Source of the DNA: a virus
Taxonomy: Duplodnaviria > Heunggongvirae > Uroviricota > Caudoviricetes
IMG/VR virus record: IMGVR_UViG_3300042879_005260
Location: 29,514 to 93,513 of that record
DNA length: 64,000 bases
Reading direction: 5' to 3' (one strand)
Made by a program: the position numbers and the translations under genes. This document shows positions 2,378-63,641 of the stretch, in pieces; within the stretch, counting starts at the first letter, position 1, and each line of letters opens with the position of its first letter. The notes under the pieces are model-generated. The model worked only from the letters and a program-made list of their open reading frames with translations, did no database searches and was not told the origin of the DNA.

Positions 2378-3622
2378 TTAATTTATCATAAGAATACGTT
2401 TTGTTATGTTATTACCTATTGTAACTATATAATTACCAGAAACAATGTCACCGACTTCAAAAGTTTGTGTACCAACAAATAAAATATTGTTAAATTTTTT
2501 AACACATTGGCCAGTTATATTGTAAATTTTAATATCACCACTTTTTTCTGTGACATTTTTAAAATTTAAAAAAATAAAATTTCTATCAGTAAAAACATCT
2601 ACAGTTTTATTTGTTTCTGAAAAAAAACCAGATGGATCCGAAATTTCAACAAGTACCGAATCTTCGGAAACACAAATACCATTGCTTGATTTTAATTTAA
2701 CAACATAAGTACCAACTTGGTTATAAACATGTGAAACCGTTGTTGAAATGGTGGAGTCAACCGCTGAACCATCACCAAAATCCCATATCTGACTTACTCC
2801 ATTAATAATTGTTGCATAAAAAATAATCGGGGTATTTATTATTCCAATAATTGGATTTATGTAATTAAATTGTATTTTAACAAAGTTAGTATTTGGGATT
2901 GTAACCCAATCCTCTATTATAAAACCATCTATTTGTAACAACATTTTATAGTTTCCAGATGTCAATAAAAAAAATATCGTATCAGATTCACCACTAAAAT
3001 CGGTAACAGTACCCAAAGTATCGTTTTCTGAGTTAATCAAAGTGATATCAACATCTAAAAAATTACTTAAATATTGAGTGACAATTAAACCACTACCATG
3101 TAAAACAGATTGTACCTGGCAAGGTTCTACGATTCCCGCCACAGTAAGAGGTGGGTGTATATGTATAAAAAACCTATTGTTAAATGTACCTGGAGTTAGT
3201 GAAACAGTAACACTGTTGTTTATTCTTAGGTTTTGTTTTAAACCTGTAATAGAATCTTCAATATAAATCATACTACTGGGTGGAAAACTACTAAAGTCAG
3301 AAACTGTTATTGTGTAATTTGCCAATGTTTGTATATAAAGGCCTAATGGTATTTTAAAATCTTTATTTAATTGACCCATAACGTTGATGGCCAATTTTTC
3401 ATTATCTATTATAGTGTAAATACTTGGGACACCTGGTAATGCCGCTAACATCTTTACACCGTCACTGCTTAGATTGAAACTATCACTTCCTAATGGGTCA
3501 AAATATATTACAGTTTCATCAGCACTATTATTACCTTGTAGTTCAATACACAATAGATTAGGTATTTCATTGGCGAATAAATTGGTTGTTATTAAGCAAA
3601 AAAATAGTAAAAACTTTTTCAT
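2378..3622 (-). CDS. secreted protein with T9SS type A (Por) C-terminal sorting domain
   Basis: signal peptide MKKFLLFFCLITTNLFA; C-terminus IKIYNITGQCV...GNYIVTIGN resembles Por secretion tail. Confidence 0.5.
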   Translation of the reverse strand: MKKFLLFFCLITTNLFANEIPNLLCIELQGNNSADETVIYFDPLGSDSFNLSSDGVKMLAALPGVPSIYTIIDNEKLAINVMGQLNKDFKIPLGLYIQTLANYTITVSDFSSFPPSSMIYIEDSITGLKQNLRINNSVTVSLTPGTFNNRFFIHIHPPLTVAGIVEPCQVQSVLHGSGLIVTQYLSNFLDVDITLINSENDTLGTVTDFSGESDTIFFLLTSGNYKMLLQIDGFIIEDWVTIPNTNFVKIQFNYINPIIGIINTPIIFYATIINGVSQIWDFGDGSAVDSTISTTVSHVYNQVGTYVVKLKSSNGICVSEDSVLVEISDPSGFFSETNKTVDVFTDRNFIFLNFKNVTEKSGDIKIYNITGQCVKKFNNILFVGTQTFEVGDIVSGNYIVTIGNNITKRILMIN

Positions 3623-6871: not shown

Positions 6872-7264
6872 TTATCTTTCAAAGACATCACCTAAATCAT
6901 CAAATAGTTTTTTATATTCGTTTTTAATCCCTTCACTCAGTCCATCATCACTAAAAATTCTTAGAAAATGATTTAACAAAAATTCTAGATTAAAATTTTC
7001 AGCTTTTTCGTAGAAAAAATGACTATCAGTTTTATCTGGAATAATTTCACCTATAAAGTAATAAAAATTATTATTTCCATTTTCTTCATCTACAATATAA
7101 TCATAACCATTAAAAGATTTTTTACCTTTTAATTTTGTTTGAAATAATTTCATTAAAAATTCAGGATTTTTTGAAGCATCACTTGGTGGTATAATATTAT
7201 AATTTTCGATCCAATCAAAATCATCAAACTCTTCCCTTAATATTTTTCTTATAAGATTTTTCAT
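6872..7264 (-). CDS. array-associated family member (conserved N-terminal module only)
   Basis: N-terminus MKNLIRKILREEFDDFDW identical to family; start abuts distal end of mini-array A. Confidence 0.5.
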   Translation of the reverse strand: MKNLIRKILREEFDDFDWIENYNIIPPSDASKNPEFLMKLFQTKLKGKKSFNGYDYIVDEENGNNNFYYFIGEIIPDKTDSHFFYEKAENFNLEFLLNHFLRIFSDDGLSEGIKNEYKKLFDDLGDVFER

Positions 7265-7277
7265 ATTTTATAAATAT

Positions 7278-7378
7278 CAGGTCAACACCTTTCGTTTATG
7301 GGTCATCTCTAGCGCCGTGAAATTAAATGATGATCTAGGTCTGCTGTCAATACCTTTCGTTTATGGGTCATCTCTAGC
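7278..7378 (-). CRISPR. mini-array A: 2 repeats (36 bp), 1 spacer (29 bp)
   Basis: repeats 7278-7313 (degenerate distal) and 7343-7378 (gene-proximal, gctagagatgacccataaacgaaaggtattgacagc in gene sense); spacer 7314-7342. Confidence 0.6.
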
Positions 7379-7707
7379 ATACGCATACATAAGTCTTTGA
7401 TTTCCTGATTGTTAAGACCAAATTTTTGATTTAATTTTCTCCAAATTTTATCATAATTAACTAATAAAATCGGATTTTTTTCATCCCTATCCGCATCATC
7501 CGCCATTAAATTTAGCCCACTTTTATCCTTATATAACATCCAACCTGGATTTTTTTCCGAAGGAATCATCTTTAAATTTGACATAATTTCATATAAAAAC
7601 TCTTCAGCGGGAGAAAATTGTTTGGTGTTACCAATCAATTCTTCTGCCCAACCAAAATCATCAAATTGTTCTTTTAGAATTTGTTTTACTATTTCACTAA
7701 TTTTCAT
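7309..7707 (-). CDS. array-associated family protein (FDDFGW...LEMTHKRKVLT); 3' end runs into mini-array A
   Basis: homologous over full length to 21508..21873, 39154..39597, 52997..53419; C-terminal LEMTHKRKVLT encoded by first repeat; ORF tail is read-through of spacer. Confidence 0.55.
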   Translation of the reverse strand: MKISEIVKQILKEQFDDFGWAEELIGNTKQFSPAEEFLYEIMSNLKMIPSEKNPGWMLYKDKSGLNLMADDADRDEKNPILLVNYDKIWRKLNQKFGLNNQEIKDLCMRMLEMTHKRKVLTADLDHHLISRR

Positions 7708-21507: not shown

Positions 21508-21873
21508 ATGAAAAACCTTATAAGAAAAATATTAAGGGAAGAATTTGATGATTTTGATTGGGTGGGGGAAATTAAACAATTTTCACCCGCTGAAGAGTTC
21601 TTATATGAAATCATGTCCAATTTAAAGGCGGTTACTTCGGAAAAAAATCCAGGTTGGATGTTTTATAAGGATATAAGTGGACTAAATTTAATGGCGGATA
21701 ATGTGGATAGAGATGAAAAAAATCCTTATTTATTAGTTGATTATCGTCAAATTTGGAGAAAATTACGTCAAGAATTTGGCCTTAATGAACAAGAAATCAG
21801 TAATTTATGCGTGCGTATGCTGGAAATGACCCATAAACGAAAGGTATTGATAGCTGCATCTCCCGGATTTTGA
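21508..21873 (+). CDS. array-associated family protein; 3' end is first repeat of mini-array B
   Basis: MKNLIRKILREEFDDFDWVGEIKQFSPAEEF...CVRMLEMTHKRKVL; stop lies inside spacer 1. Confidence 0.55.
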   Translation: MKNLIRKILREEFDDFDWVGEIKQFSPAEEFLYEIMSNLKAVTSEKNPGWMFYKDISGLNLMADNVDRDEKNPYLLVDYRQIWRKLRQEFGLNEQEISNLCVRMLEMTHKRKVLIAASPGF

Positions 21874-22115
21874 AACGGTGCAGAGCTGGAAATGACCCAT
21901 AAACGAAAGGTGTTTACAGCAAAAACTTGACGAACTTTTTTCGGAGTCGCTGGAAATGACCCATAAACGAAAGGTGTTTACAGCGCCAATTCATAATTCC
22001 TGGCAAATCCCTCTGCTGGAAATGACCCATAAACGAAAGGTGTTTACAGCTGTTACTGATGGTGGTATTGTGGCATACAGCTGGAAATGACCCATAAACG
22101 AAAGGTATTACTCCA
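21819..22115 (+). CRISPR. mini-array B: 5 repeats (36 bp), 4 spacers (30, 28, 30, 29 bp)
   Basis: repeats at 21819, 21885, 21949, 22015, 22080 (consensus gctggaaatgacccataaacgaaaggtgtttacagc; first and last degenerate at 3' end); spacers 21855-21884, 21921-21948, 21985-22014, 22051-22079. Confidence 0.7.
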
Positions 22116-22641
22116 CAAAATTAGTCCATTGGTCAGATTGTATTTCATTTAAATAAAAAGAATCAATACGACCAGTAGATTTCATTTCTTGACCCCAATT
22201 TTTAAAAGTACCAAAGTGTTTTGGGCGATCGTCCCATAATTCAATATCACGAATAGTTGGATATCTATATAATATTAAATCAAGATATTTTATTTTTTCG
22301 TTTAACGTACTACCACCTTTATTAAAAAAATAAAAATCAAAGTACAATTCGTTATCATCTAATATTTCTTTAACTAGACCCGCTAAAGATTCTAACCTAC
22401 CAGTGGACATAATCATCAAACAGTTAGGGTCTTCACTATATTTCAAATAATCGTTATAAACCTCTTTAATCGGTTCCATAGTCCAAACATTTCTATCTAA
22501 AGATTCTGGTCTACCCCACCAACCTTTATAAGCCCATGGTTTTCCGTAATAAGAGGCCCATTTTTCTTTATTCTCAGGTGAAGCAACAGGTGTGTCTATC
22601 AAAGTTCCGTCAAAGTCGAAATAACATAATTTAGTTTTCAT
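22108..22641 (-). CDS. HAD-superfamily phosphatase
   Basis: motif I FDFDGTL at N-terminus; 177 aa. Confidence 0.55.
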   Translation of the reverse strand: MKTKLCYFDFDGTLIDTPVASPENKEKWASYYGKPWAYKGWWGRPESLDRNVWTMEPIKEVYNDYLKYSEDPNCLMIMSTGRLESLAGLVKEILDDNELYFDFYFFNKGGSTLNEKIKYLDLILYRYPTIRDIELWDDRPKHFGTFKNWGQEMKSTGRIDSFYLNEIQSDQWTNFVE

Positions 22642-23128: not shown

Positions 23129-23156
23129 ACCCCACTTTATTATGTGGGGGTTTTTG
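23129..23156 (+). terminator. rho-independent terminator
   Basis: ccccac-loop-gtgggg hairpin plus T-run. Confidence 0.6.
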
Positions 23157-23597
23157 TTGATATTTATAAGTATGAGAGAATCAGTAGGTATTGTTATAAT
23201 AGCAAAAGAAACAAAAAATTTTTTATTACTACATAGAGTTAATAAACCAGTTGTCTGGTCAACCTTAACAGGTAAAATGGATAAAAAAGGTGAAACACCT
23301 TTGGAAACGGTTAAAAGAGAAATCTGGGAAGAAATTGGTGTTAACCCATCAAACATAAAAAACATCCAAGAAGTTGGGGTTACAAATAACGGACATCACA
23401 TTATGGTTGGTTTTGTTAATACCGAGTTTAAAATACCAAACCTTAAAAAAGATGAGAATGATGATTATGGTTGGTTTAATGAAAATAACCTACCATCACC
23501 AATGCATCAAAAATGGCCAGAAACTTTTCAATATGTAAAAAATTTCTTAAATTTAAAAGAAGAGATTAGAAAAATTAAAAAATTAATTAATGTATAA
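23142..23597 (+). CDS. Nudix hydrolase
   Basis: Nudix box GKMDKKGETPLETVKREIWEEIGV. Confidence 0.65.
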   Translation: MWGFLLIFISMRESVGIVIIAKETKNFLLLHRVNKPVVWSTLTGKMDKKGETPLETVKREIWEEIGVNPSNIKNIQEVGVTNNGHHIMVGFVNTEFKIPNLKKDENDDYGWFNENNLPSPMHQKWPETFQYVKNFLNLKEEIRKIKKLINV

Positions 23598-23784
23598 AAA
23601 AGACACATTTAAAAGTGAGGAATTAAAAATGCGACAAGATATTGTTGCAACAGAAATTAAAAAAGAAATTTTTATCCAAGAAATTAAAAACGGCTTAGGA
23701 GATGAAATACTAAAAGAACCGAATAAAAAACAAAAAAAGTTAACTATTTGGCAAAAAATTAAAAAAATCTTTTCACATGGGTAA
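23590..23784 (+). CDS. hypothetical small protein
   Basis: ORF track 64 aa. Confidence 0.3.
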   Translation: MYKKDTFKSEELKMRQDIVATEIKKEIFIQEIKNGLGDEILKEPNKKQKKLTIWQKIKKIFSHG

Positions 23785-24025
23785 TGTCATATTAAAAACA
23801 ACAACTTTAAAAGAATTTGTTGATTTTGCGTTTTCTTTAAAAGAAATGGAAGAAGTTAAAAAAAACGGATTTCCGATACCACATTCATTAACCTTTAAAT
23901 TAGATGATAGAAATCACCAAGCTTTACAAAAAGAAATTTTAAAGCAAAAAGAAATACCTTCACAAGAATTGGTAGATGTTTTTGAAATGGAACTGTATGG
24001 TATTACTTTTATTTTTGTTAAATGA
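23777..24025 (+). CDS. hypothetical small protein
   Basis: ORF track 82 aa. Confidence 0.3.
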   Translation: MGNVILKTTTLKEFVDFAFSLKEMEEVKKNGFPIPHSLTFKLDDRNHQALQKEILKQKEIPSQELVDVFEMELYGITFIFVK

Positions 24026-24603
24026 AATCAGATATTGATATTACGATTGAAAATGTTGCTTCATTAGATGAAGTGGGTAGAGGTTGCCTTTCTGGGCCCG
24101 TGGTCGCTGCAGCTGTAATTCTGCCTAAAGATTTTAGTTCACCTTTAATAAAAGATTCTAAAAAGTTAACTGAAAAACAAAGAGAAAAAGCTTTTGAGTT
24201 AATAAAAGAAGTTGCTATCGATTATGCTATTTCTTTTATCTCACCACAAGAAATTGACAGGGTTAATATATTACAAGCAACAATGACAGCTATGCACATT
24301 TGTTTAAAAGAACTAGAAAAACCTTTTCAACATATATTGGTTGATGGTAACTATTTTAAAAAATATAAAGAAACGGAACATACATGTGTTATAAAGGGTG
24401 ACAATACTTATTATTCTATTGCTGCCGCTTCTATTTTAGCTAAAGTCACCAGAGACGAACATATGAAAATGTTACATCAGGAATTCCCAATCTATAATTG
24501 GGTAAATAATAAAGGTTACGGTTCTAAAGAACATATAGAAAAAATTAAAAGTTTTGGTATTACCGAACATCACCGTAAAAGTTTTTTAAAAAACATTCTC
24601 TGA
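24022..24603 (+). CDS. rnhB: ribonuclease HII
   Basis: DEVGRGCLSGPVVAAAV catalytic motif; VDGNYF; 193 aa. Confidence 0.8.
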   Translation: MKSDIDITIENVASLDEVGRGCLSGPVVAAAVILPKDFSSPLIKDSKKLTEKQREKAFELIKEVAIDYAISFISPQEIDRVNILQATMTAMHICLKELEKPFQHILVDGNYFKKYKETEHTCVIKGDNTYYSIAAASILAKVTRDEHMKMLHQEFPIYNWVNNKGYGSKEHIEKIKSFGITEHHRKSFLKNIL

Positions 24604-24604
24604 A

Positions 24605-25084
24605 ATGCCGATTCCAAATGATATTTTAAAACTTATCACAGAAAATTGTGAAGAAAAAATAAATAATCATAAAAGAGTTGATGGTTTTTTTACTGAAAAG
24701 GCCATTATAGAAAATAAAGTTCGAGAATTATTTAAAACAGAAGGTATTAAAGTTGACGATATTGTTTGGATAAAAGATGTTTTTGTTTTACGGGAAAAAA
24801 TCAAAAACTTAAAAAATCCTTGGGTTTATCACTATAAAACTAATATGCCTTGGGTTTTGTTTTATAAAAGTTTTTATGAATCTTGTTTAAAAATAAAAAA
24901 CAAATCTTGTAAAAAATTTATTAATGAAGGCAAAGAAACTTATAATAAAATAGTTTTACTCAAAGACATATTAGATAATGTTGATGGTATTGTGGAAGCA
25001 ACGGAAAACAATACAACGGTTTATTTAGTGAAAATAGATGTTAATCTTATAAATTGTGATATTAAAAATTTTACCTTGAATTAG
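24605..25084 (+). CDS. hypothetical protein
   Basis: ORF track 159 aa. Confidence 0.4.
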   Translation: MPIPNDILKLITENCEEKINNHKRVDGFFTEKAIIENKVRELFKTEGIKVDDIVWIKDVFVLREKIKNLKNPWVYHYKTNMPWVLFYKSFYESCLKIKNKSCKKFINEGKETYNKIVLLKDILDNVDGIVEATENNTTVYLVKIDVNLINCDIKNFTLN

Positions 25085-25712
25085 TTCGATACAGGCGGTT
25101 ATATCCAATTCCCAATCTTTTATGGAGTCTTTTATACCAAACCTTACTACTTATCTTATCAACAATACCAAAAAACAAAATATCATTTATTTTATTTTCA
25201 TAACAATAAGTTCTAATCCTATTATATAACTTTAAAGCTTGTTCTGAATTTTTACAAGTCACCAAAAAAAGTTCCAAACTTTCAATAATTAATTTATTTT
25301 TTAAAACCAATAATTGTTTTGGATTCTTTTTTTCTTTTCTAACAAGAACTAAATTATCAAGAATTTCTTTTGCAGTTAATTTTCGATTAACATTGGTTAC
25401 ATTAAAAGTTTCTTCAACCCCATAAGGTGAAAAATCAATAATTATCCATTCAGGATCATTAGATTTCATCTCCACAAATTTACCAATCTCATTTTTCATT
25501 ACTTTATCTTTATCATTTTCATCTCTTTTTTTTAAAAGAAGAATTTCATAAGTAACATGTTCTAATTTTTTATTTTTATAAATTTTAGTTTTTGGAAAGA
25601 AAAAAGCTTGAGATTTTAGTTCCCGAAATTTATTATTAGCATCGTTTTTCCTGTTATATCGGTGTAAAATACTTATTTTACGTTTATTCTCTGTTAAAAC
25701 AATTTGAAACAT
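25071..25712 (-). CDS. hypothetical protein
   Basis: ORF track 213 aa. Confidence 0.4.
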   Translation of the reverse strand: MFQIVLTENKRKISILHRYNRKNDANNKFRELKSQAFFFPKTKIYKNKKLEHVTYEILLLKKRDENDKDKVMKNEIGKFVEMKSNDPEWIIIDFSPYGVEETFNVTNVNRKLTAKEILDNLVLVRKEKKNPKQLLVLKNKLIIESLELFLVTCKNSEQALKLYNRIRTYCYENKINDILFFGIVDKISSKVWYKRLHKRLGIGYNRLYRTNSR

Positions 25713-25753
25713 ATTTTTTATAATAAATATAAGAATACTAAAAATAAACTTTA

Positions 25754-26719
25754 ATGGCTGAAACTTTATACGATGTTTTAGGTCTTAACAAGACAGCAAC
25801 AAAAGAAGAAATAAAAAAAGCTTATCGTAATTTAAGTAAACAACACCATCCAGATGTTGGCGGTGATGAGGAGGTTTTTAAAAAAATATCCCATGCCTAT
25901 AACATTTTGTCTGATGATGACAAAAGAAAAAATTATGATAACCATGGTAGTGAAAAAAACCAAAGATTTAACCCATTTGCCGGTAATCCCTTTACCAATA
26001 TTAGAATGCGACCAAGACCTATAAACATTGAATTACGTTTAACGGTGGAGGAAGTTTATAACGGTTCTTTAAAAAAAATCCATTTTAAAGTTGAAAAACC
26101 CTGTAGCACATGTAACGGTGTCGGTGCAACGGAAACTAAACGCTGTGATGTTTGTGAAGGTAAGGGTGCGATTATTCATCAAATACAAAATATGCAACAC
26201 ATTACAATGTGTACTACATGTAACGGTAGTGGTATAATACCTATTAAAAAATGTAATACATGCAACGGTATCGGCAGACAATTAGTGTCAGAAAATCATG
26301 ATATCGACATACCTAAAGGGGTTACAGAAGGTAACACTTTAATCTTAGAAGGTTTTGGTAATCAAAATACAGCTGGTTATCGTGGTGATGTTTTTTTATT
26401 AATAAAAGTAGAACCACATCCTGTTTACACAATAGAAGGCCTTGATATTAGCAAAAAAGAAGAATTACCTTTTATTGATATGGTTTTAGGTTGTAATTAT
26501 GAATTAGAAACTTTAGGTGGTAAATTTAAAATTACAATACCAGAAAGTTGCGAATCAAACAAAATTTTTCGGTTAAAAGGCCAAGGTATTAAGGATGAAA
26601 ATTCTGGACGTGTTGGTGATTTATATGTGAAAGTAATACCTAAAATACCAAAAGAATTAACAACAGAAGAAAAAAATACTCTTTTAAGTCTTAAAAACTT
26701 TAGTAATAAATTTTCCTGA
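25754..26719 (+). CDS. dnaJ: DnaJ-like chaperone
   Basis: J domain with HPD (YRNLSKQHHPDVGGD); four CxxCxGxG zinc-finger repeats. Confidence 0.8.
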   Translation: MAETLYDVLGLNKTATKEEIKKAYRNLSKQHHPDVGGDEEVFKKISHAYNILSDDDKRKNYDNHGSEKNQRFNPFAGNPFTNIRMRPRPINIELRLTVEEVYNGSLKKIHFKVEKPCSTCNGVGATETKRCDVCEGKGAIIHQIQNMQHITMCTTCNGSGIIPIKKCNTCNGIGRQLVSENHDIDIPKGVTEGNTLILEGFGNQNTAGYRGDVFLLIKVEPHPVYTIEGLDISKKEELPFIDMVLGCNYELETLGGKFKITIPESCESNKIFRLKGQGIKDENSGRVGDLYVKVIPKIPKELTTEEKNTLLSLKNFSNKFS

Positions 26720-26731
26720 TATTTATTATTA

Positions 26732-28150
26732 ATGAACAAAAAAGAATTATTAACAGAAATTACAGGTGTACCAAAAGCTATAAATTTTTGGATTGAACAA
26801 TTATCAACCATAATAGCTGATTTAACTGAAGAATTGGTTGAAGAAAATAGTTTTAATGAAGTTAACGTTGAATATTTAACCTTAACTGAACCTAAAGAAA
26901 TAAAAAAAGGTATCGCACTAATGGATGGTTATAACGTTAGTGGTGAGTATATAAATAAAAAAGTTATTAAAAATTCTGGTGTCGGTAATGAAAAGGGGTT
27001 ATTACAAGATCCAAGATTCCAAAGTTATCCTCTTTATGCTCCTAAAATTTCTTTAGATGTTAAATTCATACCAGATGAATTTTATGATATAGAATTTAAA
27101 AGGCCTTATGACGGCATAGAAGGTGAACATGGATTCGATAGTGGAAGTAAAATGATTTCTAATATTGAAGGCGTTAAAATTTTTATCTTACAAGAGTTTG
27201 AGTTTGTTTTATATTTGCCAATGCGATATTTAAAAAATTTTAACAAAAACACAATTAAATCAATAATAAAACCAACAATAAACCACGAATTGGTTCACGC
27301 ATACGAACTTTACCGTAAATTAGAAACCAAAGAAGACCCGTTTCAGGGACAAGAAACTTTTTTAAACGTTATAAAAAAAGTTTTACCTGATACAAATTTA
27401 AAAATGGTTAATAAATTTATGCACTTAATTTATTTACATTTATATTTTGAAATAAATGCAAGAGTAAGTCAATTGTATCAGGAAATGGTTGAGGATGGTG
27501 TAACCAGAAAAGAAGAATTTTTTGAAGCAGTTAAAAAATCTAGTATCTGGGGAGAATTTAAAAAATTAGAATCTTTTAACGCGGATGAATATTTATCATA
27601 TTTAGTTACTAATTTTGGTGATCAAAAAGTTAAAAATTTCATTAAAAAATGGGATTCCAGTTTACAAACAATAAATACCATTTTTAAAGAACAAGGCATT
27701 TATAAAGGTAAATTTATGGATTTAGTACCAAAAGAAGCTAAAGAAAATCCAAAAGTCTTTTTTAAATTTTTTGAAAAAAGATTCCATAATAAAGCCGCAG
27801 AATTTAAAAGAAAAATATTACGTTTATATAATCTTGTTGTTAATAAGCCATTTGTTAATGAAAACAAACAAGTAGTTTGCCCCTCTTGCTCCCATGATTG
27901 GACAACGGAAGTAAATGATGAAAACCCTTATTTATGTCATATGTGTGGTTATGATGTAAAAGATAAAAAATATAAACAAAAAGAAATGAATCAGTTTTGG
28001 GATAAAGAATTACAAGAAAAATGGAGTAAAAAATATAAAAAATCCATAAATTGCAGTAACCCCAAAGGATTTAGTCAAAAAGCACATTGTGCCGCTAGAA
28101 GAAAAAGAAAAGCAGGTCAAAAAACAAAATCAAAATCACCTTTTAATTAA
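26732..28150 (+). CDS. HExxH motif protein with C-terminal zinc ribbon and basic tail
   Basis: INHELVHAYELY; CPSCSHDW...CHMCGYD; tail CSNPKGFSQKAHCAARRKRKAG. Confidence 0.45.
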   Translation: MNKKELLTEITGVPKAINFWIEQLSTIIADLTEELVEENSFNEVNVEYLTLTEPKEIKKGIALMDGYNVSGEYINKKVIKNSGVGNEKGLLQDPRFQSYPLYAPKISLDVKFIPDEFYDIEFKRPYDGIEGEHGFDSGSKMISNIEGVKIFILQEFEFVLYLPMRYLKNFNKNTIKSIIKPTINHELVHAYELYRKLETKEDPFQGQETFLNVIKKVLPDTNLKMVNKFMHLIYLHLYFEINARVSQLYQEMVEDGVTRKEEFFEAVKKSSIWGEFKKLESFNADEYLSYLVTNFGDQKVKNFIKKWDSSLQTINTIFKEQGIYKGKFMDLVPKEAKENPKVFFKFFEKRFHNKAAEFKRKILRLYNLVVNKPFVNENKQVVCPSCSHDWTTEVNDENPYLCHMCGYDVKDKKYKQKEMNQFWDKELQEKWSKKYKKSINCSNPKGFSQKAHCAARRKRKAGQKTKSKSPFN

Positions 28151-29181: not shown

Positions 29182-29208
29182 TTTTATGACTCTTTGAAAT
29201 ATTTTAAT

Positions 29209-29279
29209 GTCCGATGGTGTAACGGCTAACATTTCTGAATTTGACTCAGAAGATTTCAGGTTCGAATCCTGATCGGACA
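29209..29279 (+). tRNA. tRNA-Gln(UUG)
   Basis: acceptor GTCCGAT/ATCGGAC, anticodon arm TCTGA-ATTTGAC-TCAGA, T-arm TCAGGTTCGAATCCTGA. Confidence 0.7.
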
Positions 29280-29288
29280 ACCATAACC

Positions 29289-29361
29289 GGAGCTTTCGTA
29301 TAGCTGGTGCGTACGTTGGACTGAAAATCCAAAGGACTAGGCTCGATTCCTAGAGGCTCCA
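29289..29361 (+). tRNA. tRNA-Phe(GAA)
   Basis: anticodon arm TTGGA-CTGAAAA-TCCAA; T-loop CTCGATT. Confidence 0.7.
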
Positions 29362-29367
29362 CTGAAC

Positions 29368-29441
29368 GGCGTCGTAGTCAAGTGGTTTAAGACAGGACTC
29401 TCATAAGGTCCCATTCGGGGGTTCGAATCCCTTCGACGCTA
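29368..29441 (+). tRNA. tRNA-Met/Ile2(CAU)
   Basis: anticodon arm GGACT-CTCATAA-GGTCC; T-arm GGGGGTTCGAATCCCTT. Confidence 0.65.
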
Positions 29442-29446
29442 CAAAT

Positions 29447-29519
29447 TCTCCTGAAGCATTGCTGGCGATGCACCTGACTTGTAATCAGGATACAATCGGT
29501 TCGATTCCGGTCGGGAGAT
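29447..29519 (+). tRNA. tRNA-Thr(UGU)
   Basis: anticodon arm CCTGA-CTTGTAA-TCAGG; T-loop TTCGATT. Confidence 0.65.
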
Positions 29520-29525
29520 CCAAAT

Positions 29526-29597
29526 AGTTCTGTAACTCAATGGAAGAGTACCAAGCTTACATCTTGGCTGTCGTTAGTTCGATTCTAACCAGAACTA
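29526..29597 (+). tRNA. tRNA-Val(UAC)
   Basis: acceptor AGTTCTG/CAGAACT; anticodon arm CCAAG-CTTACAT-CTTGG. Confidence 0.65.
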
Positions 29598-29604
29598 CTT
29601 AAAT

Positions 29605-29679
29605 GCCTCCATGGCGGAATTGGTAGACGCGTCACTCTTAGAAAGTGAATTTTTGTAGGTTCGAATCCTACTGGGGGCA
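29605..29679 (+). tRNA. tRNA-Leu(UAG), short variable arm
   Basis: Leu-type D-arm GCGGAATTGGTAGACGC; anticodon arm TCACT-CTTAGAA-AGTGA; discriminator A; only 75 nt. Confidence 0.55.
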
Positions 29680-29690
29680 CAAAAAAATAT

Positions 29691-29721
29691 TTGGTAAATT
29701 AAAAAATTTTATCTATATTTG
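29691..29721 (+). promoter_or_regulatory. Bacteroidetes-type promoter inside the tRNA cluster
   Basis: TTG at 29691, 20-nt gap, TATATTTG at 29714-29721, directly upstream of tRNA-Glu. Confidence 0.45.
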
Positions 29722-29733
29722 TACAACAATAAC

Positions 29734-29805
29734 GGTCGGTTCATCTAAGGGTTAGGATACAAGATTTTCATTCTTGTCATAGGGGTCCGAATCCCCTACC
29801 GACTA
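29734..29805 (+). tRNA. tRNA-Glu(UUC)
   Basis: anticodon arm CAAGA-TTTTCAT-TCTTG; T-arm AGGGGTCCGAATCCCCT. Confidence 0.65.
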
Positions 29806-29876
29806 CAAAAGGTTGATTGGGAATTCGGTGAACCGATGAGGTGAGTGAAACTAATCATAAAGTTCTTTGATATTAT

Positions 29877-29964
29877 GGCTGGGTGGCGAAATTTGGTTAT
29901 ACGCGAAAGACTTAAAATCTTTTGGACCGTGAGGTCCGTGCGGGTTCGAGTCCCGCCCCGGCTA
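29877..29964 (+). tRNA. tRNA-Leu(UAA), class II
   Basis: anticodon arm AAAGA-CTTAAAA-TCTTT; long variable arm TGGACCGTGAGGTCCGT; T-arm GCGGGTTCGAGTCCCGC. Confidence 0.7.
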
Positions 29965-29970
29965 CTAAAC

Positions 29971-30047
29971 ATGGTGATAGAGGAGTCAGGTTTATCTCGC
30001 TTGGTTTGGGACCAAGAATTACGTGGGTTCGAATCCCACTCACCATA
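29971..30047 (+). tRNA. tRNA-Pro(UGG)
   Basis: acceptor ATGGTGA/TCACCAT; anticodon arm CTTGG-TTTGGGA-CCAAG. Confidence 0.6.
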
Positions 30048-30055
30048 CTAAACAA

Positions 30056-30128
30056 GCCCTCGTGGCGCAACGGTGAGCGCAGGATGCTTATATCATCAAG
30101 GCTGTTGGTTCGAGTCCAACCGAGGGTA
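30056..30128 (+). tRNA. tRNA-Ile(UAU) candidate
   Basis: anticodon arm GGATG-CTTATAT-CATCA gives anticodon TAT; T-arm GTTGGTTCGAGTCCAAC. Confidence 0.5.
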
Positions 30129-30227
30129 CTAAAAAAAATATTAATCCTAGATTAAAATGAAAATAAAATATAAATATAAACAGTAAGGTTAGTCCACTAC
30201 GAATGGGCTAACCTTATAAAATGTTAA

Positions 30228-30299
30228 CCGCTCGTAGCAAACTGGTGTAGGCAATAGACTTTTAATCTATGGGGCTGGGTTCGACTCCCAGCGGGCGGA
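30228..30299 (+). tRNA. tRNA-Lys(UUU)
   Basis: anticodon arm ATAGA-CTTTTAA-TCTAT; T-arm CTGGGTTCGACTCCCAG. Confidence 0.65.
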
Positions 30300-30324
30300 C
30301 AAAAACCAAATTAAATAAGATTAC

Positions 30325-32443: not shown

Positions 32444-32520
32444 AGTCAGGTGGCTGAATTGGCGACAGAGGCACTCCATTAGACAATGGGTGGATGCAGG
32501 TTCGAGTCCTGTCCTGACTA
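32444..32520 (+). tRNA. tRNA-like element with aberrant anticodon region
   Basis: acceptor AGTCAGG/CCTGACT and T-arm GCAGGTTCGAGTCCTGT are canonical, but the central region forms an extended CCATT-AGAC-AATGG hairpin instead of a 7-nt anticodon loop. Confidence 0.4.
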
Positions 32521-32540
32521 CTAAAAAATTAAAAAATAAA

Positions 32541-36039: not shown

Positions 36040-36110
36040 GCGGTATTTGTGTAGTGGTAAGACATGACATTGCCAATGTTAAGACGTAAGTTCGATTCTT
36101 GCATACCGCT
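36040..36110 (+). tRNA. tRNA-Gly(GCC)
   Basis: acceptor GCGGTAT/ATACCGC; anticodon arm TGACA-TTGCCAA-TGTTA; T-arm GTAAGTTCGATTCTTGC. Confidence 0.6.
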
Positions 36111-36156
36111 CTATTGATTTTTTTACATTGTAAACATATATTTATATTAAAAAAAT

Positions 36157-36708
36157 ATGAAAGATAAATTTGATGATTTTGGTGACGACTTTTTTGGTCG
36201 TTGGGAAGAGTTTAATAGATTAATGGTTAACTCACCTTTGATAAGAGATGAAATGGAAAAATTTCTTCGAATGCTAATGGATTCCAATGATTTAAATAAC
36301 GAAATTTCAAATATTAGAATCATACCTTTGAATGCTTATAAGCCAAATGATATTGATTCTTTTGATATTCCAGAAAACGAATTGGATGTTGAAAAAGGTG
36401 AAAATGAAAACGGTAAATGGGAAACTAAAAGTTGGACATCTCCAGATGGTTCTATGAGTTTTAAATCTTTTAGTATGTCATCAACACCCGAAGAATTTTT
36501 TTATAAAAATTTAATGTCAGATCTTTTTCAAACTGGTGACAATAGAAATTCAAAAAAATATACTACAGAAGATTTGAAAAATTTTAAAATAGAAAAACTC
36601 CAAAAATCTTTAAATGCCGCAGTTGAAGTTGAAGATTATGAAAAAGCTGCGGAACTTAAAAAAATGATTGAAAAAATAAAAGAAGAAAATTTTGATAATA
36701 AAAAATAA
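36157..36708 (+). CDS. acidic protein with UVR-like motif
   Basis: C-terminal LQKSLNAAVEVEDYEKAAELKKMIEKIK resembles UvrB/UvrC (UVR) domain. Confidence 0.4.
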   Translation: MKDKFDDFGDDFFGRWEEFNRLMVNSPLIRDEMEKFLRMLMDSNDLNNEISNIRIIPLNAYKPNDIDSFDIPENELDVEKGENENGKWETKSWTSPDGSMSFKSFSMSSTPEEFFYKNLMSDLFQTGDNRNSKKYTTEDLKNFKIEKLQKSLNAAVEVEDYEKAAELKKMIEKIKEENFDNKK

Positions 36709-36727
36709 TTTTATATATTTGTGATAT

Positions 36728-36890
36728 ATTTATAAAACAGAAAATGAAAAATTGGCAAAACATATCGATTAACCATAGTAACCGAATTAGTTCGGAATGT
36801 ATGAGGTGTGTCTTGTCCAGATTTAAGGTATAATTATTTTTATAAAAAATTGGATAACCCACCTCAAGAAATTTGATGGTGGGTTTTTTG
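36728..36890 (+). ncRNA. candidate small RNA (~160 nt) between promoter and terminator
   Basis: TTGATA..TATATTTG promoter at 36692-36721; terminator hairpin 36856-36885 plus T-run; only a 29-aa ORF inside. Confidence 0.3.
36855..36890 (+). terminator. rho-independent terminator
   Basis: aacccacc...ggtgggtt hairpin plus T6. Confidence 0.6.
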
Positions 36891-37006
36891 TTATTTGACA
36901 TATTGGAAATAAATTGGAGAGTTAAGCAGATGCATTGGAGCGTCGACCAGCTTTGAAACCTGGGTCTCGTTAAATTGAGTGGGGGTCGGGTCCTCAGCTC
37001 TCCGCT

Positions 37007-37081
37007 GTGTCTGTAGCTTAGATGGTTTAAAGCGTCTGATTGTGGTTCAGAAGACCGTGGGTTCGAATCCCACCAGACACC
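37007..37081 (+). tRNA. tRNA-His(GUG)
   Basis: acceptor GTGTCTG/CAGACAC; anticodon arm TCTGA-TTGTGGT-TCAGA; T-arm GTGGGTTCGAATCCCAC. Confidence 0.65.
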
Positions 37082-37087
37082 TTATAG

Positions 37088-37159
37088 GGGGGTGTAGCTC
37101 AGAGGCAGAGCAAACTACTGTTAATAGTTAGGCCGAGATTTCAAAATTCTCCATCCCCG
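37088..37159 (+). tRNA. tRNA-Asn(GUU)
   Basis: acceptor GGGGGTG/CATCCCC; anticodon arm AACTA-CTGTTAA-TAGTT; T-loop TTCAAAA. Confidence 0.55.
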
Positions 37160-37165
37160 CAAAAT

Positions 37166-37238
37166 AGTACCGTGTCTGAACGGTTTAGGAACTATCCTGA
37201 TAAGATAGGAAAAGTGGGTTCGACTCCCACCGGTACTA
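37166..37238 (+). tRNA. tRNA-Ile(GAU)
   Basis: acceptor AGTACCG/CGGTACT; anticodon arm CTATC-CTGATAA-GATAG; T-arm GTGGGTTCGACTCCCAC. Confidence 0.65.
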
Positions 37239-37244
37239 CAACAT

Positions 37245-37326
37245 GCATCTGCTCATTGGTGTGACCAACCGGCTCCAACCCGGTAATGCGTAAGCGTGGT
37301 TAAGAGTTCGAATCTCTTCGGATGCG
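37245..37326 (+). tRNA. tRNA with anticodon CCA (Trp?) and long extra arm, atypical
   Basis: acceptor GCATCTG/CGGATGC; anticodon arm ACCGG-CTCCAAC-CCGGT; T-arm AAGAGTTCGAATCTCTT; 82 nt. Confidence 0.4.
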
Positions 37327-37331
37327 CAAAA

Positions 37332-37418
37332 GGAAGATAGGTAAATATTGGTTTGTTACAACATCCTGCTAAGATGTCCCAGGTAAAACTGGTGAGGGTT
37401 CAATTCCCTTGTCTTCCG
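37332..37418 (+). tRNA. tRNA-Ser(GCU), class II
   Basis: anticodon arm ACATC-CTGCTAA-GATGT; long variable arm CCCAGGTAAAACTGGT; CCA encoded. Confidence 0.65.
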
Positions 37419-37424
37419 CCAAAT

Positions 37425-37499
37425 AGTCCCATAGCTCAACGGATTTAGAGTACAGTGCTACGAACACTGCGGTTGAAGGTTCAAATCCTTCTGGGACTA
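37425..37499 (+). tRNA. tRNA-Arg(ACG)
   Basis: acceptor AGTCCCA/TGGGACT; anticodon arm CAGTG-CTACGAA-CACTG; T-arm GAAGGTTCAAATCCTTC. Confidence 0.65.
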
Positions 37500-37540
37500 C
37501 AAACATTTACTAAAAAAAGAAAATTTCATATTATTCAAAT

Positions 37541-38041: not shown

Positions 38042-39105
38042 ATTCTATCATAAACATCTTCTTCAAAGTAAGGTAGAACTTCTTTTCTACTAGGATATTC
38101 ATCAAACCTTGGAGACCAAAGTTGCCCATTTTCCGTTAACATATTTTCAAATAAACTTTTAAATAGATAAGAGTCAAAATCATGACAATCATCACAATAT
38201 TCTTCAGGATTTTCAACTTTACGGTTATTTAAACAATGTTCAAAACAACCATAAAAATAATCATTAATCACCCCTTCAAATAAGTCAGTAATATCAAATT
38301 TTAAAAAATATTTGGTTCTACCTTTTTCGTTAGTTGTGGTACCCTCAATAGGTTGACCAAATACATCTGTTATGGCTTCTTTTATAGATTTATAAATATT
38401 GTCAGTTGTGGCAACATTATAAGCACTATCATAAGCCCAACCAAACTCTCTTTTTAATTCTAAAAAAGTATCGTCATCATCTATTAAACGACCTAAAGAT
38501 TCTGGGTTTTCTGTTAACCAATTAAAATATTCGTTATCCAATAGACGTTCTTTTCCTCCGGACATTAAATCTTCAACATAATAGATTTCTCTTTTCTCTG
38601 GTAAATTACCAAAAATATCTAATTGTTTTGGGTTGTAATTATCAGGGATAACATATTCTTTTTTAATATGTTTTAAAATATATTCATAAAGTTTATTATT
38701 ACCTACAACACCTTCTAACCAAACATCATTAAACCAACTGCCGTAGGTATCGTTATAAGGTTCCCACCAATTGTTTTCATCACAAAATATTTTTTCAACC
38801 AACCAAGAATTAACTATACCGTATTGGGTTAAATTATCATCATTTTTGAAAAAACCAGTAAAGTCACAAAAACCATCTACCGTCATCATAATTCTATCAC
38901 CTTCTAAATTTATATCACTAAATTCGGAGGCTAGTATTGGCATGATTCTTTTTTTAAGGTTTACACTTTTTGATTTGCCGTAATTTGCACGATACCAAAG
39001 TATGCCAGCCGGAATTTCAACTGTTTCAACATTATCAATTAAATCTCCCACCCAATCAAAATCATCAAATTCTTCTCTCAATATTTTTCTTATAAGGTTT
39101 TTCAT
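38038..39105 (-). CDS. array-associated family member (conserved N-terminal module fused to an unrelated 330-aa body)
   Basis: MKNLIRKILREEFDDFDWVG then unrelated sequence; start abuts distal repeat of mini-array C. Confidence 0.5.
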   Translation of the reverse strand: MKNLIRKILREEFDDFDWVGDLIDNVETVEIPAGILWYRANYGKSKSVNLKKRIMPILASEFSDINLEGDRIMMTVDGFCDFTGFFKNDDNLTQYGIVNSWLVEKIFCDENNWWEPYNDTYGSWFNDVWLEGVVGNNKLYEYILKHIKKEYVIPDNYNPKQLDIFGNLPEKREIYYVEDLMSGGKERLLDNEYFNWLTENPESLGRLIDDDDTFLELKREFGWAYDSAYNVATTDNIYKSIKEAITDVFGQPIEGTTTNEKGRTKYFLKFDITDLFEGVINDYFYGCFEHCLNNRKVENPEEYCDDCHDFDSYLFKSLFENMLTENGQLWSPRFDEYPSRKEVLPYFEEDVYDRI

Positions 39106-39118
39106 ATTTTATAAATAT

Positions 39119-39286
39119 CAGGTTAACATTTTTCGTTTATGGGTCATCTCCAGCTATGCCATTGGTAGCAGAGTGGTCTCTAACGCTGTCAATACCTTTC
39201 GTTTATGGGTCATCTCCAGCCAAAGTTCCCACGTTTTAAAAAGACATGCAGCTGTCAATACCTTTCGTTTATGGGTCATCTCCAGC
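39119..39286 (-). CRISPR. mini-array C: 3 repeats (36 bp), 2 spacers (30 bp each)
   Basis: repeats 39119-39154 (degenerate distal), 39185-39220, 39251-39286 (gene-proximal); spacers 39155-39184 and 39221-39250. Confidence 0.65.
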
Positions 39287-39597
39287 ATACGCACGCATAA
39301 GTCTTTGGTTTCCTGATAGTTAAGACCAAATTTTTGACTTAATTTTGACCAAATTTCATCATAATCAACCCATAAACAAGGGTTTTTTTCATTTCTATCC
39401 ACATTATCCGCCATTAAATTTAGCCCACTTTTATCCTTATATAACATCCAACCTGGATGTTTTTCCGAAGGAACCGCCTTTAAATTGGACATAATTTCAT
39501 AAAGAAATTCTTCAGCGGGGGAAAATTCTTTAATTTCCCCCACCCAATCAAAATCATCAAACTCTTCCCTTAATATTTTTCTTATAAGATTTTTCAT
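39154..39597 (-). CDS. array-associated family protein; 3' end runs through mini-array C
   Basis: MKNLIRKILREEFDDFDWVGEIKEFSPAEEF...CVRMLEMTHKRKVLT; ORF tail is in-frame read-through of repeat-spacer units (each 66 bp). Confidence 0.55.
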   Translation of the reverse strand: MKNLIRKILREEFDDFDWVGEIKEFSPAEEFLYEIMSNLKAVPSEKHPGWMLYKDKSGLNLMADNVDRNEKNPCLWVDYDEIWSKLSQKFGLNYQETKDLCVRMLEMTHKRKVLTAACLFKTWELWLEMTHKRKVLTALETTLLPMA

Positions 39598-39610
39598 ATT
39601 TTATAAATAT

Positions 39611-39844
39611 CAGGTCAACACCTTTCGTTTATGGGTCATCTCCAGCTCAAATCAACTTCAATCAAAGTCCGATTCAGCTGTCAATACCTTTCGTTTATGG
39701 GTCATTTCCAGCACCCTCGCCCGGATTGTTGGAGGTGAAAAGGCTGTCAATACCTTTCGTTTATGGGTCATTTCCAGCCAGCGAATGTGAAGCGTGACAC
39801 CTCCGGTTGCTGTCAATACCTTTCGTTTATGGGTCATTTCCAGC
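39611..39844 (-). CRISPR. mini-array D: 4 repeats (36 bp), 3 spacers (30 bp each)
   Basis: repeats 39611-39646 (degenerate distal), 39677-39712, 39743-39778, 39809-39844; spacers 39647-39676, 39713-39742, 39779-39808; spacers about 50% GC in a roughly 30% GC genome. Confidence 0.7.
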
Positions 39845-41346
39845 ATACGCACGCATAAGTCTTTGATTTCTTGTTCATTAAGACGAAATTCTTGATTTAA
39901 TTTTAACCAAATTTCATCATAATCAACCCATAAATAAGGATTTTCTTTATCTCTATCCGCATCATCCGCCATTAAAGTAACCCCGCTTTTATCCTTATAT
40001 AACATTAAACCTGGATTATTTTCCGAAGGAACCACCTTTAAATTGGACATGATTTCATACAAAAATTCTTCAGCGGGTGAAAATTGTTTGGTGTTACCAA
40101 CTAATTCTTCTGCCCAACCAAAATCATCGGATTCAAATAAATTATTTATAATATCTTGAACTTCTTTTTGGTAGATACCAATTTTTTTAAACTTAATTCT
40201 ACCCGATTCAAGATGTTTTAAAAAATCAATAACATAATAACCAATTTTATGTTTTATACCATTAACTGAGTCTTCCCAGGAAATTATAAAATCATCATAC
40301 CCATCTTCCACTCTTAACTCTTCTATTTTATATTCTTCATTTGGTTTGTTGGTATAATAAAAAATAGAACCTATATAATCTTTTGGGTTTTGAAACTTAT
40401 TTTCTTTATTTTCATATAAACTACTTATTATATCATAAGCGTTTGGTAAATCACCTAAATTTTTTAAAACAAAAAAACCATTATTTAAATATTCAATAAG
40501 GATACTTATTGTCATTGTAGAATATTCTGTCATTGGTTCACCATCTTCATTTAGATCATCAGGGTCTTCCCATTCAATGTCAATTAAGTCAACAGAACTA
40601 TCTTGATCCCAAATACGATATACCACAAATTCTTCAGGGCTATAAAACTCAAATCCAATTAGATTTTCATCTTTTAAAAAATCAAATTTACCTTCCAATA
40701 ATAAAGAATTATTTTTTTCTTTATTTTCTTGAATTTTATTTTTGTTAAATAAATTTTTTAAACCATGGGTACCAACAGCCATAATAATACCACTCAAAAG
40801 TTCTTGAACATTATTAATAGTAAAACCTTTTTCTGTGGTTAAATTTTTAATAAAATCTAAAACCGGAACTGATAAAAATGTAAAACTTAAAATATCTAAT
40901 AAATCGTTAATCATGTAACCAAATTTTTTACCAAATATTTTAAATAAATTGATTGTTTTGGAAATAAAATTTAAAACTGGTGATATTTCTTTTTCAAGGC
41001 CTCTTTCTTTAATCTTATCAACAACCTCATCAATTTCTTCTTTTGGTTTTGATAGGATAATATAAATCGCAACAATTGTTAAAAGTGCAACATCATAATC
41101 CGTAACATTTAAATTTTTATTTTCTAACAAAGATTTAACTGGGCCAATAAAAGCGGAAATACCAACTCCATAAGTCATTATAAAGTTGAAATTACTTTTT
41201 AGCTGTGAAATGATTTCTTTTAACACTGGATTAGTTTTTACATCGAAACCTTTATTAATTATATTTTCATTTAAAGAATTAAGTTTACCTTTAAGATAAA
41301 CCTCTTCTAGTAGTAAATTTAAAGAGATATTAGAAATGTTACCCAT
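39658..41346 (-). CDS. large protein (562 aa) whose C-terminal ~130 aa is the array-associated family domain; 3' end runs through mini-array D
   Basis: ...FESDDFGWAEELVGNTKQFSPAEEFLYEIMSNLK...CVRMLEMTHKRKVLT; N-terminal ~430 aa unrelated. Confidence 0.55.
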   Translation of the reverse strand: MGNISNISLNLLLEEVYLKGKLNSLNENIINKGFDVKTNPVLKEIISQLKSNFNFIMTYGVGISAFIGPVKSLLENKNLNVTDYDVALLTIVAIYIILSKPKEEIDEVVDKIKERGLEKEISPVLNFISKTINLFKIFGKKFGYMINDLLDILSFTFLSVPVLDFIKNLTTEKGFTINNVQELLSGIIMAVGTHGLKNLFNKNKIQENKEKNNSLLLEGKFDFLKDENLIGFEFYSPEEFVVYRIWDQDSSVDLIDIEWEDPDDLNEDGEPMTEYSTMTISILIEYLNNGFFVLKNLGDLPNAYDIISSLYENKENKFQNPKDYIGSIFYYTNKPNEEYKIEELRVEDGYDDFIISWEDSVNGIKHKIGYYVIDFLKHLESGRIKFKKIGIYQKEVQDIINNLFESDDFGWAEELVGNTKQFSPAEEFLYEIMSNLKVVPSENNPGLMLYKDKSGVTLMADDADRDKENPYLWVDYDEIWLKLNQEFRLNEQEIKDLCVRMLEMTHKRKVLTATGGVTLHIRWLEMTHKRKVLTAFSPPTIRARVLEMTHKRKVLTAESDFD

Positions 41347-41378
41347 ATGATATAAATATATGGAATATTGTAGTTTGT

Positions 41379-53422: not shown

Positions 53423-53806
53423 ATGAAAAATTTTATAAGAAAAATATTAAGAGAAGAGTTTGATGATTTTGATTGGGTGGGGGAAATTAAAGAATTTTCC
53501 CCCGCTGAAGAATTTCTTTATGAAATCATGTCCAATTTAACAATGATTCCTTCTGAAAATTATCCAGGTTGGATGTTGTATAAAGATGAAATCGGAAGAA
53601 TATTAATGGCTGATGATATTGACCTTAATGACGGGGCTCCAAGTTTATTAATATCTTATCATGGAATATTTCAAATTTTAAGAAATAAGTTCAAACTTGA
53701 ATATGGTGAGATGGTGAAATCATCTAAAAAAATATTTAATTTGGTACACAAACGCCAAGTTGATGCTGTCGGAGCACTTTATAACTTACATTTATCACAA
53801 TTTTAA
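53423..53806 (+). CDS. array-associated family member with diverged C-terminus (no array)
   Basis: MKNFIRKILREEFDDFDWVGEIKEFSPAEEF... ends LVHKRQVDAV instead of LEMTHKRKVLT. Confidence 0.5.
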   Translation: MKNFIRKILREEFDDFDWVGEIKEFSPAEEFLYEIMSNLTMIPSENYPGWMLYKDEIGRILMADDIDLNDGAPSLLISYHGIFQILRNKFKLEYGEMVKSSKKIFNLVHKRQVDAVGALYNLHLSQF

Positions 53807-63384: not shown

Positions 63385-63398
63385 AATTTATATAATCG

Positions 63399-63470: not shown

Positions 63471-63477
63471 ATTATTG

Positions 63478-63550: not shown

Positions 63551-63564
63551 ATTTAATATTTTTG

Positions 63565-63637: not shown

Positions 63638-63641
63638 AGGG

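Follow-up and report, generated by a model that had tools for sequence, protein, structure and literature searches.

Short CRISPR arrays are borne by viruses, for example by the Saccharolobus portogloboviruses SPV1 and SPV2 (PMC11656645), and compact arrays occur in huge phages (PMC7162821); in the viral mini-arrays described so far, the repeats are identical to those of the host and most spacers match related viruses (PMC11656645). The RNA anti-CRISPRs (Racr) are solitary non-coding phage repeats with phage promoters, often linked to anti-defence genes, and a systematic survey recovered solitary repeat units for all CRISPR types except type VI (PMC10651486). Type VI-B (Cas13b) systems are defined by a 36-nt repeat with GUUG/CAAC ends and 30-nt spacers, the spacer preceding the repeat in the mature RNA (10.1101/092577); VI-B loci have no cas1 or cas2 of their own, and their use of borrowed type II-C machinery has been shown in Flavobacterium columnare (PMC8092290). 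Here, we analyze a mini-array at positions 21819-22115 on the plus strand of a 64,000-nt stretch of Caudoviricetes DNA (hereafter, the window; positions 29,514 to 93,513 of IMG/VR record IMGVR_UViG_3300042879_005260). It is one of five in the window that begin inside members of a phage gene family, and its repeat resembles those of type VI-B.

Gene-embedded mini-arrays of the window

The array consists of five 36-nt repeats and four mutually unrelated spacers of 30, 28, 30, and 29 nt. Repeat 1 (GCTGGAAATGACCCATAAACGAAAGGTATTGATAGC; 21819-21854) is followed by spacer 1 (21855-21884; 50% GC), repeat 2 (21885-21920), spacer 2 (21921-21948), repeat 3 (21949-21984), spacer 3 (21985-22014), repeat 4 (22015-22050), spacer 4 (22051-22079), and a terminal repeat (22080-22115) with a degenerate 3' end (…GGTATTACTCCA) that overlaps the 3' end of a convergent open reading frame (ORF), 22108-22641(-), by 8 nt. 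Repeats 2, 3, and 4 are identical and equal the consensus GCTGGAAATGACCCATAAACGAAAGGTGTTTACAGC, from which repeat 1 departs at three positions and the terminal repeat at seven, mostly at its 3' end. At ≤3 mismatches, we counted nine repeat copies in the window, compared with none in 100 shuffles; a looser search of both strands identified 16 copies forming five arrays with 11 spacers, located at 7278-7378(-), 21819-22115(+), 39119-39286(-), 39611-39844(-), and 53308-53409(+). The 21819-22115 array is the largest, with four spacers compared with one to three in the other four. The initial annotation of this DNA, made from the letters alone, had likewise called it the largest and had described a 36-nt repeat with complementary GCUG/CAGC ends and spacers of 28-30 nt; our coordinates, measurements, and shuffles agree with this description.

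All five window arrays start in frame within the 3' end of a paralogous phage gene of ~120 aa, a feature that the initial annotation did not mention. For the 21819-22115 array, this gene is a 121-aa reading frame at 21508-21873(+) (MKNLIRKILREEFDDFDWV...LCVRMLEMTHKRKVLIA+ASPGF), the last 12 conserved codons of which constitute repeat 1 and the stop codon of which lies within spacer 1, and the coding sequence immediately upstream sits where a leader would be. The repeat translates as ...LEMTHKRKVLTA, with the in-frame reading (M)LEMTHKRKVL(T/I)A. In three of the window arrays, the gene-distal repeat reads ...ATGCTGGAGATGACCCATAAACGAAAGGTGTTGACC-TGA, an intact ...MLEMTHKRKVLT-stop, with the ATG of the next gene 12 nt on, and the repeat-spacer units look as if they had been inserted between the gene body and its original end. 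A diverged paralog at 53423-53806(+) retains a normal C terminus (...IFNLVHKRQVDAV...; ...VHKRQVDAV...) and has neither repeat-like DNA nor an array.

The repeat is composed of codons that are rare in this 29.4%-GC genome (CTG, 1.3% of Leu; CGA, 8.9% of Arg; AAG, 7.5% of Lys; GAG, 14% of Glu), with a joint probability of 8e-9 for its codon choice, and its core CATAAACGAAAGGT is invariant across loci with a THKRK-type repeat, even where the genes are ~60% identical in protein. The rare codons and the invariant core together indicate that the repeat is constrained as nucleic acid, beyond its coding function. Terminator prediction gave nothing in the interval that separates array A of the window from its gene, or between genes and arrays within 38800-41500, which holds two further modules and where the sole candidate lies on the opposite strand inside a family gene; the arrays should thus be transcribed as the tail of the gene's mRNA. 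A sigma-70 promoter scan gave results no better than shuffles, using a consensus that does not cover Bacteroidota promoters.

This gene-plus-array architecture extends well beyond the window. The gene family comprises 148 clusters at 90% identity, all metagenomic and none with a Pfam domain. The C-terminal motif was found in 116 of these clusters, of which 114 have variable tails beyond ...KVLT, corresponding to one or more spacers, and it is present two or more times in 19 family clusters; in IMG/VR and metagenomic loci, the architecture is kept and the spacers differ. A profile search of 1.84 billion representative proteins returned 163 clusters, and distant clusters have other C-terminal motifs that also recur with a 22-residue period (e.g., LEEDYKLKGFTP, VDEAYKLRGFTT, and MWETLKLKDITP). 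DNA of these distant relatives, on contigs of up to 318 kb, carries mini-arrays with 36-nt repeats of different variants and 29-31-nt spacers (loci L030, L031, L032, L044, L045, L046, L048, L049, L051, and L062). Overall, the architecture persists down to 25-30% protein identity, with repeats always 36 nt and spacers 28-31 nt long; the collected set holds 31 distinct arrays and 54 distinct spacers (28 nt, n = 1; 29 nt, n = 6; 30 nt, n = 42; 31 nt, n = 5). Three related loci (L014, 7748-7904; L029, 8332-8526; L055, 15082-15201) also contain perfect tandem repeats with a 60-63-nt period that are unrelated to the 36-nt repeat.

The other four modules of the window vary in size. The second, 7278-7707(-), pairs a family gene at 7309-7707(-) with a two-repeat array (7343-7378 and 7278-7313, spacer 7314-7342), its terminal repeat ending ...MLEMTHKRKVLT-TGA before the next gene, MKNLIRK.... 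The third, 39611-41346(-), combines a 562-aa ORF at 39658-41346(-) with a four-repeat array (39611-39844) holding three 30-nt spacers; the ORF stays open, in frame, across two of the repeat-spacer units, and its C-terminal domain is a family member. This domain covers the C-terminal ~115 residues, and distant relatives P0122, P0125, P0128-P0130, and P0147 are comparable fusions of 246-571 aa. The fourth module, 39119-39597(-), consists of a family gene at 39154-39597(-) and a three-repeat array at 39119-39286 with two 30-nt spacers, and the fifth, 52997-53419(+), of a family gene with a GTG start and a two-repeat array at 53308-53409 with one 30-nt spacer.

The family also shares a 54-nt gene-start module, encoding MKNLIRKILREEFDDFDW, that is conserved at the DNA level (0-4 mismatches) and usually preceded by TGATATTTATAAAAT. 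It occurs at 7211-7264(-), 21508-21561(+), 39052-39105(-), 39544-39597(-), 52997-53050(+), and 53423-53476(+), and it heads two ORFs that tblastn does not otherwise match to the family, 7264-6872 and the 355-aa ORF 39105-38038. Its role could be that of a common signal for expression or targeting, or it could provide a handle for recombination by which modules are shuffled.

Array growth and likeness to type VI-B repeats

With near-identical direct repeats in the 23-50-nt range and unique spacers of uniform length, these loci have the generic form of CRISPR arrays, and they also grow in a polarised way, extra units lying on the gene-proximal side and the repeat at the old end being degenerate. 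The terminal repeat is degenerate in all five window arrays; the L005(+) array has one additional gene-proximal unit relative to those of L001, L004, and L011, and window array C has two additional proximal units relative to L012 and L007. Some shared spacers adjoin different terminal repeats, indicating that recombination between arrays also occurs. A non-coding AT-rich leader and adjacent cas genes are lacking: the sequence upstream of repeat 1 is coding, and no cas gene was found in the window or within 10 kb of 35 related loci.

The spacers look foreign. Those of the window average 44% GC, compared with 29.4% for the window itself (z = 4.7), and all 54 average 39%, compared with 29-33% for the phages. 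One spacer of L014 (AAGGGGCGATGAGCCCCCTGGCCTTGTGC, in the reverse-strand array at 2642-2807) has 69% GC, far from both phage (~30%) and typical Bacteroidota composition. We considered whether spacers are selected as protein tails. This was rejected: read-through occurs in 62 of 116 tails, matching the ~52% roughly calculated for random sequence of that composition, which indicates that spacer-encoded tails are not under selection. We conclude that the arrays are, with high probability, genuinely of CRISPR type and were built by an integrase that acts within the gene, at the junction CGTAT|G.

For comparison with type VI-B, we retrieved reference repeats from metagenomes using a pattern derived from the phage repeat itself (five occurrences of GYTGG-N15-GAAAGGT-N4-ACARC with a 66-nt period), which identified eight loci with long arrays. 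Both array types that were checked adjoin Cas13b: L021 encodes a protein scoring 805 bits to NF038190, and L023 encodes a divergent Cas13b (E = 9e-13) on a contig that also encodes a protein with a type IX secretion system (T9SS) domain. Aligned in register, the window repeat agrees with the cas13b-linked repeats of L017, L021, and L023 at 22-24 of 36 positions, although 17 of its 24 matches to L023 are dictated by the retrieval pattern. The remaining nine phage variants had no part in the pattern and share 19-22 of 36 positions with the same three repeats, compared with a shuffle mean of ~10.6 (p ≤ 0.0024 for all ten phage variants). Nine positions (G1, T3, G4, A23, G25, G26, A32, C33, and A34) are invariant in the phage and cas13b-linked sets.

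Other features also follow the type VI-B pattern. The phage repeats are 36 nt long with spacers of ~30 nt, and their ends are complementary, being GCUG/CAGC in the window and GUUG/CAAC in the L002 and L029 variants; at pair 2-35, a compensatory change from C2-G35 to U2-A35 is seen in two variants and a mismatch in six. Read in the sense direction of the phage gene, the repeats correspond to authentic repeats read in the cas13b sense, and the window variant matches these at 22-24 positions forward compared with 18-19 as reverse complement. Predicted folds have in common a 4-bp terminal stem, a 2-nt internal loop, and an inner helix. Among the cas13b-linked arrays themselves, those of L019, L021, and L022 (e.g., L021, 2959-6738) are unusually heterogeneous, with many single-copy variants of GTTGGAACTACC...GAAAGGTAATCACAAC and many intervals of 97-492 nt, not 30 nt, between pattern-matching repeats; degenerate repeats could account for this, as could the "long direct repeat" phenomenon of type VI-B.

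A proposed Cas13b-type effector in trans and its alternatives

The initial annotation had proposed that the phage arrays serve a host Cas13b-type effector, as guides or as decoys. Our preferred reading of these actively growing arrays, at roughly even odds, is that their repeats function as members of the VI-B family, with a Cas13b-type effector provided in trans that processes and loads them. Under this proposal, new units would be inserted at the gene/repeat junction by a Cas1-Cas2-type integrase acting in trans, borrowed as it is for type VI-B, and the array would be transcribed as the tail of the gene's mRNA, with the gene serving as leader and probable transcription unit. A Cas13b-family effector, from the host or from an unseen part of the phage, would cut after each repeat to give 5'-spacer(30)-repeat(36)-3' RNAs. 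Since Cas13b cuts each repeat at its 3' end, the gene's mRNA would lose its stop codon at the first cleavage, which would link protein output to the activity of the effector. Once processed, the RNAs would direct the effector against other elements or host transcripts, or else would tie it up unproductively.

A number of observations weigh against this proposal, beyond the share of identity imposed by the retrieval pattern. In structure, the phage loop (CAUAAACGAAA) is 11 nt, A-rich, and closed by two to three pairs, whereas L017 and L023 have a 5-bp stem with a U-rich loop; the poly-U loop of VI-B is thus absent from the phage repeat. The hairpin shows no covariation beyond shuffles (94% of cells paired), and the reverse complements of the phage repeats also match VI-B repeats at 17-22 of 36 positions, orientation by identity being clear only for the window variant. 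The description of the repeat as Cas13b-like accordingly holds for its length, ends, spacers, and 22-24/36 identity but not for a poly-U loop, its inner stem being only 2-3 bp; likewise, the comparison of its folding with the Cas13b direct repeat supports the terminal stem and internal loop but not the A-rich loop and short inner stem. Furthermore, the 74 window ORFs that reach 90 aa include no cas gene, a search of viral contigs gave no Cas13b, and none lies within 10 kb of the family genes at 35 related loci. Genome and metagenome repeat scans were by exact pattern matching, and the phage genomes were seen only in part; within this scope, the repeat core occurs in none of 185,579 species-representative genomes except for one chance match, and no array of at least six repeats with the exact core occurs in JGI metagenomes. 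The initial annotation would have given up its proposal if no host CRISPR system with a similar repeat existed; this applies only loosely, as VI-B repeats with 61-67% identity exist and no cognate repeat was found. Neither were protospacers found for any spacer, a negative whose strength is limited by the databases and the partial genomes. Finally, the collateral RNase activity of Cas13b makes phage-programmed guidance biologically awkward.

The target searches covered the window itself, INPHARED phage records (29 spacers), plasmids (the 11 window spacers), IMG/VR (four spacer cores), and 807 kb of related phage loci (all 54 spacers), each giving no protospacer beyond chance level, and none of the retrieved cas13b-linked arrays targets these phages. 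Two apparent hits were discarded. The single genomic match to the repeat core, in bacterium UASB270, is single-copy and outside any array and was therefore attributed to chance, and the PADLOC matches to Cas9 were rejected in that no window ORF is large enough and Pfam and PHROGs identify small HNH homing endonucleases, which most likely account for the matches.

Among the alternatives, we regard as possible, though unlikely, that the arrays are RNA decoys resembling Racr, in which the 3' end of the gene is a repeat mimic that titrates a host Cas13b-type effector and the spacers are integrase by-products with no targeting role. The phage repeat is an imperfect VI-B copy, with a weak apical stem and no poly-U loop, and would fit a binder that forms aberrant complexes, as RacrIF1 does (PMC10651486); five copies lie within 64 kb, each on an mRNA, the arrays are very short (one to four spacers), and the protein tails that the spacers encode look neutral. 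The imperfect hairpin and the lack of any spacer target favor decoys. However, in 114 of 116 family clusters the repeat is accompanied by one or more spacers rather than standing alone, spacer content changes between close relatives, the described Racr candidates are solitary and include none for type VI, and no host repeat was found that could be mimicked. Less probable is an autonomous phage module, in which the repeats have as their partner the ~120-aa protein, or a different phage protein encoded outside the window, that binds the mRNA tail or processes it, and the likeness to Cas13b repeats reflects ancestry only. The strict linkage of gene and array across the superfamily keeps this explanation alive: the fusion is maintained to 25-30% protein identity while the repeat diverges, and no cognate host array or cas gene was found. 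Yet the fusion is trivially explained if the integration site lies within the gene, an array-less paralog exists, the protein (116 aa, alpha/beta) has no recognisable nuclease or RNA-binding motif, and precise insertion of 30-nt spacers still needs an integrase, and none was found.

The remaining explanations are weaker still. Some type II-C systems of Bacteroidota have 36-bp repeats and 30-bp spacers, and in F. columnare the II-C and VI-B repeats are both 36 bp with a GTTGT end and are both loaded by the II-C Cas1/2 (PMC8092290), but it is quite improbable that the phage arrays serve Cas9 in place of Cas13b. A fuzzy search of both window strands for an anti-repeat of the kind found in trans-activating CRISPR RNA returned only the arrays, the pattern scan gave only cas13b-linked arrays wherever flanks could be checked, and the in-register identity is to cas13b-linked repeats, in a compared set that holds no II-C repeats. 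An origin outside CRISPR altogether, through tandem duplication or slippage of the gene's 3' end or as a repetitive protein C terminus, would accommodate a coding repeat, a 66-nt unit equal to 22 codons, and ORFs that read through several units. It can hardly be credited, since the spacers are unrelated to one another and to the genome, those of 28, 29, and 31 nt break the reading frame, stop codons appear in spacers at the random rate given above, and unique 30-nt inserts cannot come from tandem duplication.

For processing by a Cas13b-type effector, we lean slightly to guides over decoys, as at least one spacer is kept in 114 of 116 family members and spacers turn over. A broader conjecture, which we consider doubtful, is that the 3' coding end of the superfamily is a CRISPR leader plus first repeat that recruits an integrase to build private libraries of Cas13b-type guides on mRNA tails, or that the protein and its RNA tail form a self-contained, new RNA-guided module. 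The ~120-aa protein is itself a candidate anti-defence or accessory factor.

Phage context and comparison with known systems

The window is phage DNA, encoding Mom-like and SbcCD-like proteins, HNH and GIY-YIG homing endonucleases, and 21 tRNAs; its genes for IF3, a sigma-70 factor, DnaJ, and DHFR are auxiliary functions of the sort that large phages typically carry, and related loci add a family-B DNA polymerase and a tail sheath. Phage proteins with PKD domains and T9SS C-terminal sorting domains (Por_Secre_tail and CHU_C; e.g., 2378-3622(-)) indicate a Bacteroidota host. A 6-kb segment surrounding the array had no megablast match among 50,697 phage records, with no isolated phage recovered, and Rfam returned only chance matches on the array and no CRISPR direct-repeat family. 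In L030 (5297-5516 and 5829-6560), a 262-kb phage contig, genes for NUDIX, RNase HII, and DnaJ lie upstream of the family gene and array, and a tRNA cluster follows closely downstream; the same neighbourhood is found at 23142-28150 of the window, which suggests that synteny is conserved across this jumbo-phage group, for which contigs of 108-380 kb are available. The window's tRNA genes are clustered at 29208-30300, 36040-37500, and 63398-63729. ARAGORN identified a tRNA with anticodon TTA (a UAA suppressor) at 32444-32521(+), and also present are tRNA-Leu(TAG) and tRNA-Arg(ACG), by which the repeat's rare CTG and CGA/CGT codons would be decoded.

If these arrays feed a Cas13b-type effector, they would represent a means by which phages manipulate RNA-targeting CRISPR immunity with RNA and a natural case of spacer integration into coding sequence, and they could help explain how VI-B arrays acquire spacers without cas1/cas2. 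In addition, the ten diverged variants amount to a mutational series of Cas13b-like repeats made by nature.

Mini-arrays of viruses and solitary repeat decoys are already established. In the literature, however, we found no array with a first repeat that forms part, in frame, of a conserved protein, nor did we find a type VI-like repeat on a virus, several modules in one genome, in-frame fusion to a conserved gene throughout a large jumbo-phage superfamily, or the lack of any detectable cognate host array. The phage arrays share with the VI-B arrays of Bacteroidota the 36-nt repeat, ~30-nt spacers, 66-nt period, and 5'-GYUG/CARC-3' ends, a common 3' half (…AAAGG-N-A-N-N-N-ACA-N-C), and the Bacteroidota setting, but they have no nearby cas13b, csx27, or csx28, only one to four spacers, an A-rich rather than poly-U loop, a shorter inner stem, and a protein-coding first repeat and "leader," and no bacterial array with the phage repeat was found. 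Like known viral mini-arrays, they are short, lack cas genes, and reside on viral genomes, with the effector presumed to act in trans. Unlike those implicated in inter-virus conflict, with host-identical repeats and spacers to related viruses, they have no identical host repeat that we could find and no target in 807 kb of related phage DNA, and they are fused in frame to a conserved, multi-copy gene family. With Racr they share the presence on phage genomes of repeat mimics that could titrate Cas proteins, but they are coding and, in 114 of 116 cases, accompanied by spacers, and do not conform to a solitary repeat unit. A further parallel is the spontaneous formation of CRISPR arrays ("neo-CRISPR"), in which off-target spacer integration at a repeat-like genomic site duplicates that site. 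This process would yield exactly the gene-embedded architecture of the phage arrays; the phage product, however, is conserved across the whole superfamily, with several copies in each genome, and this speaks for selection and against accident.

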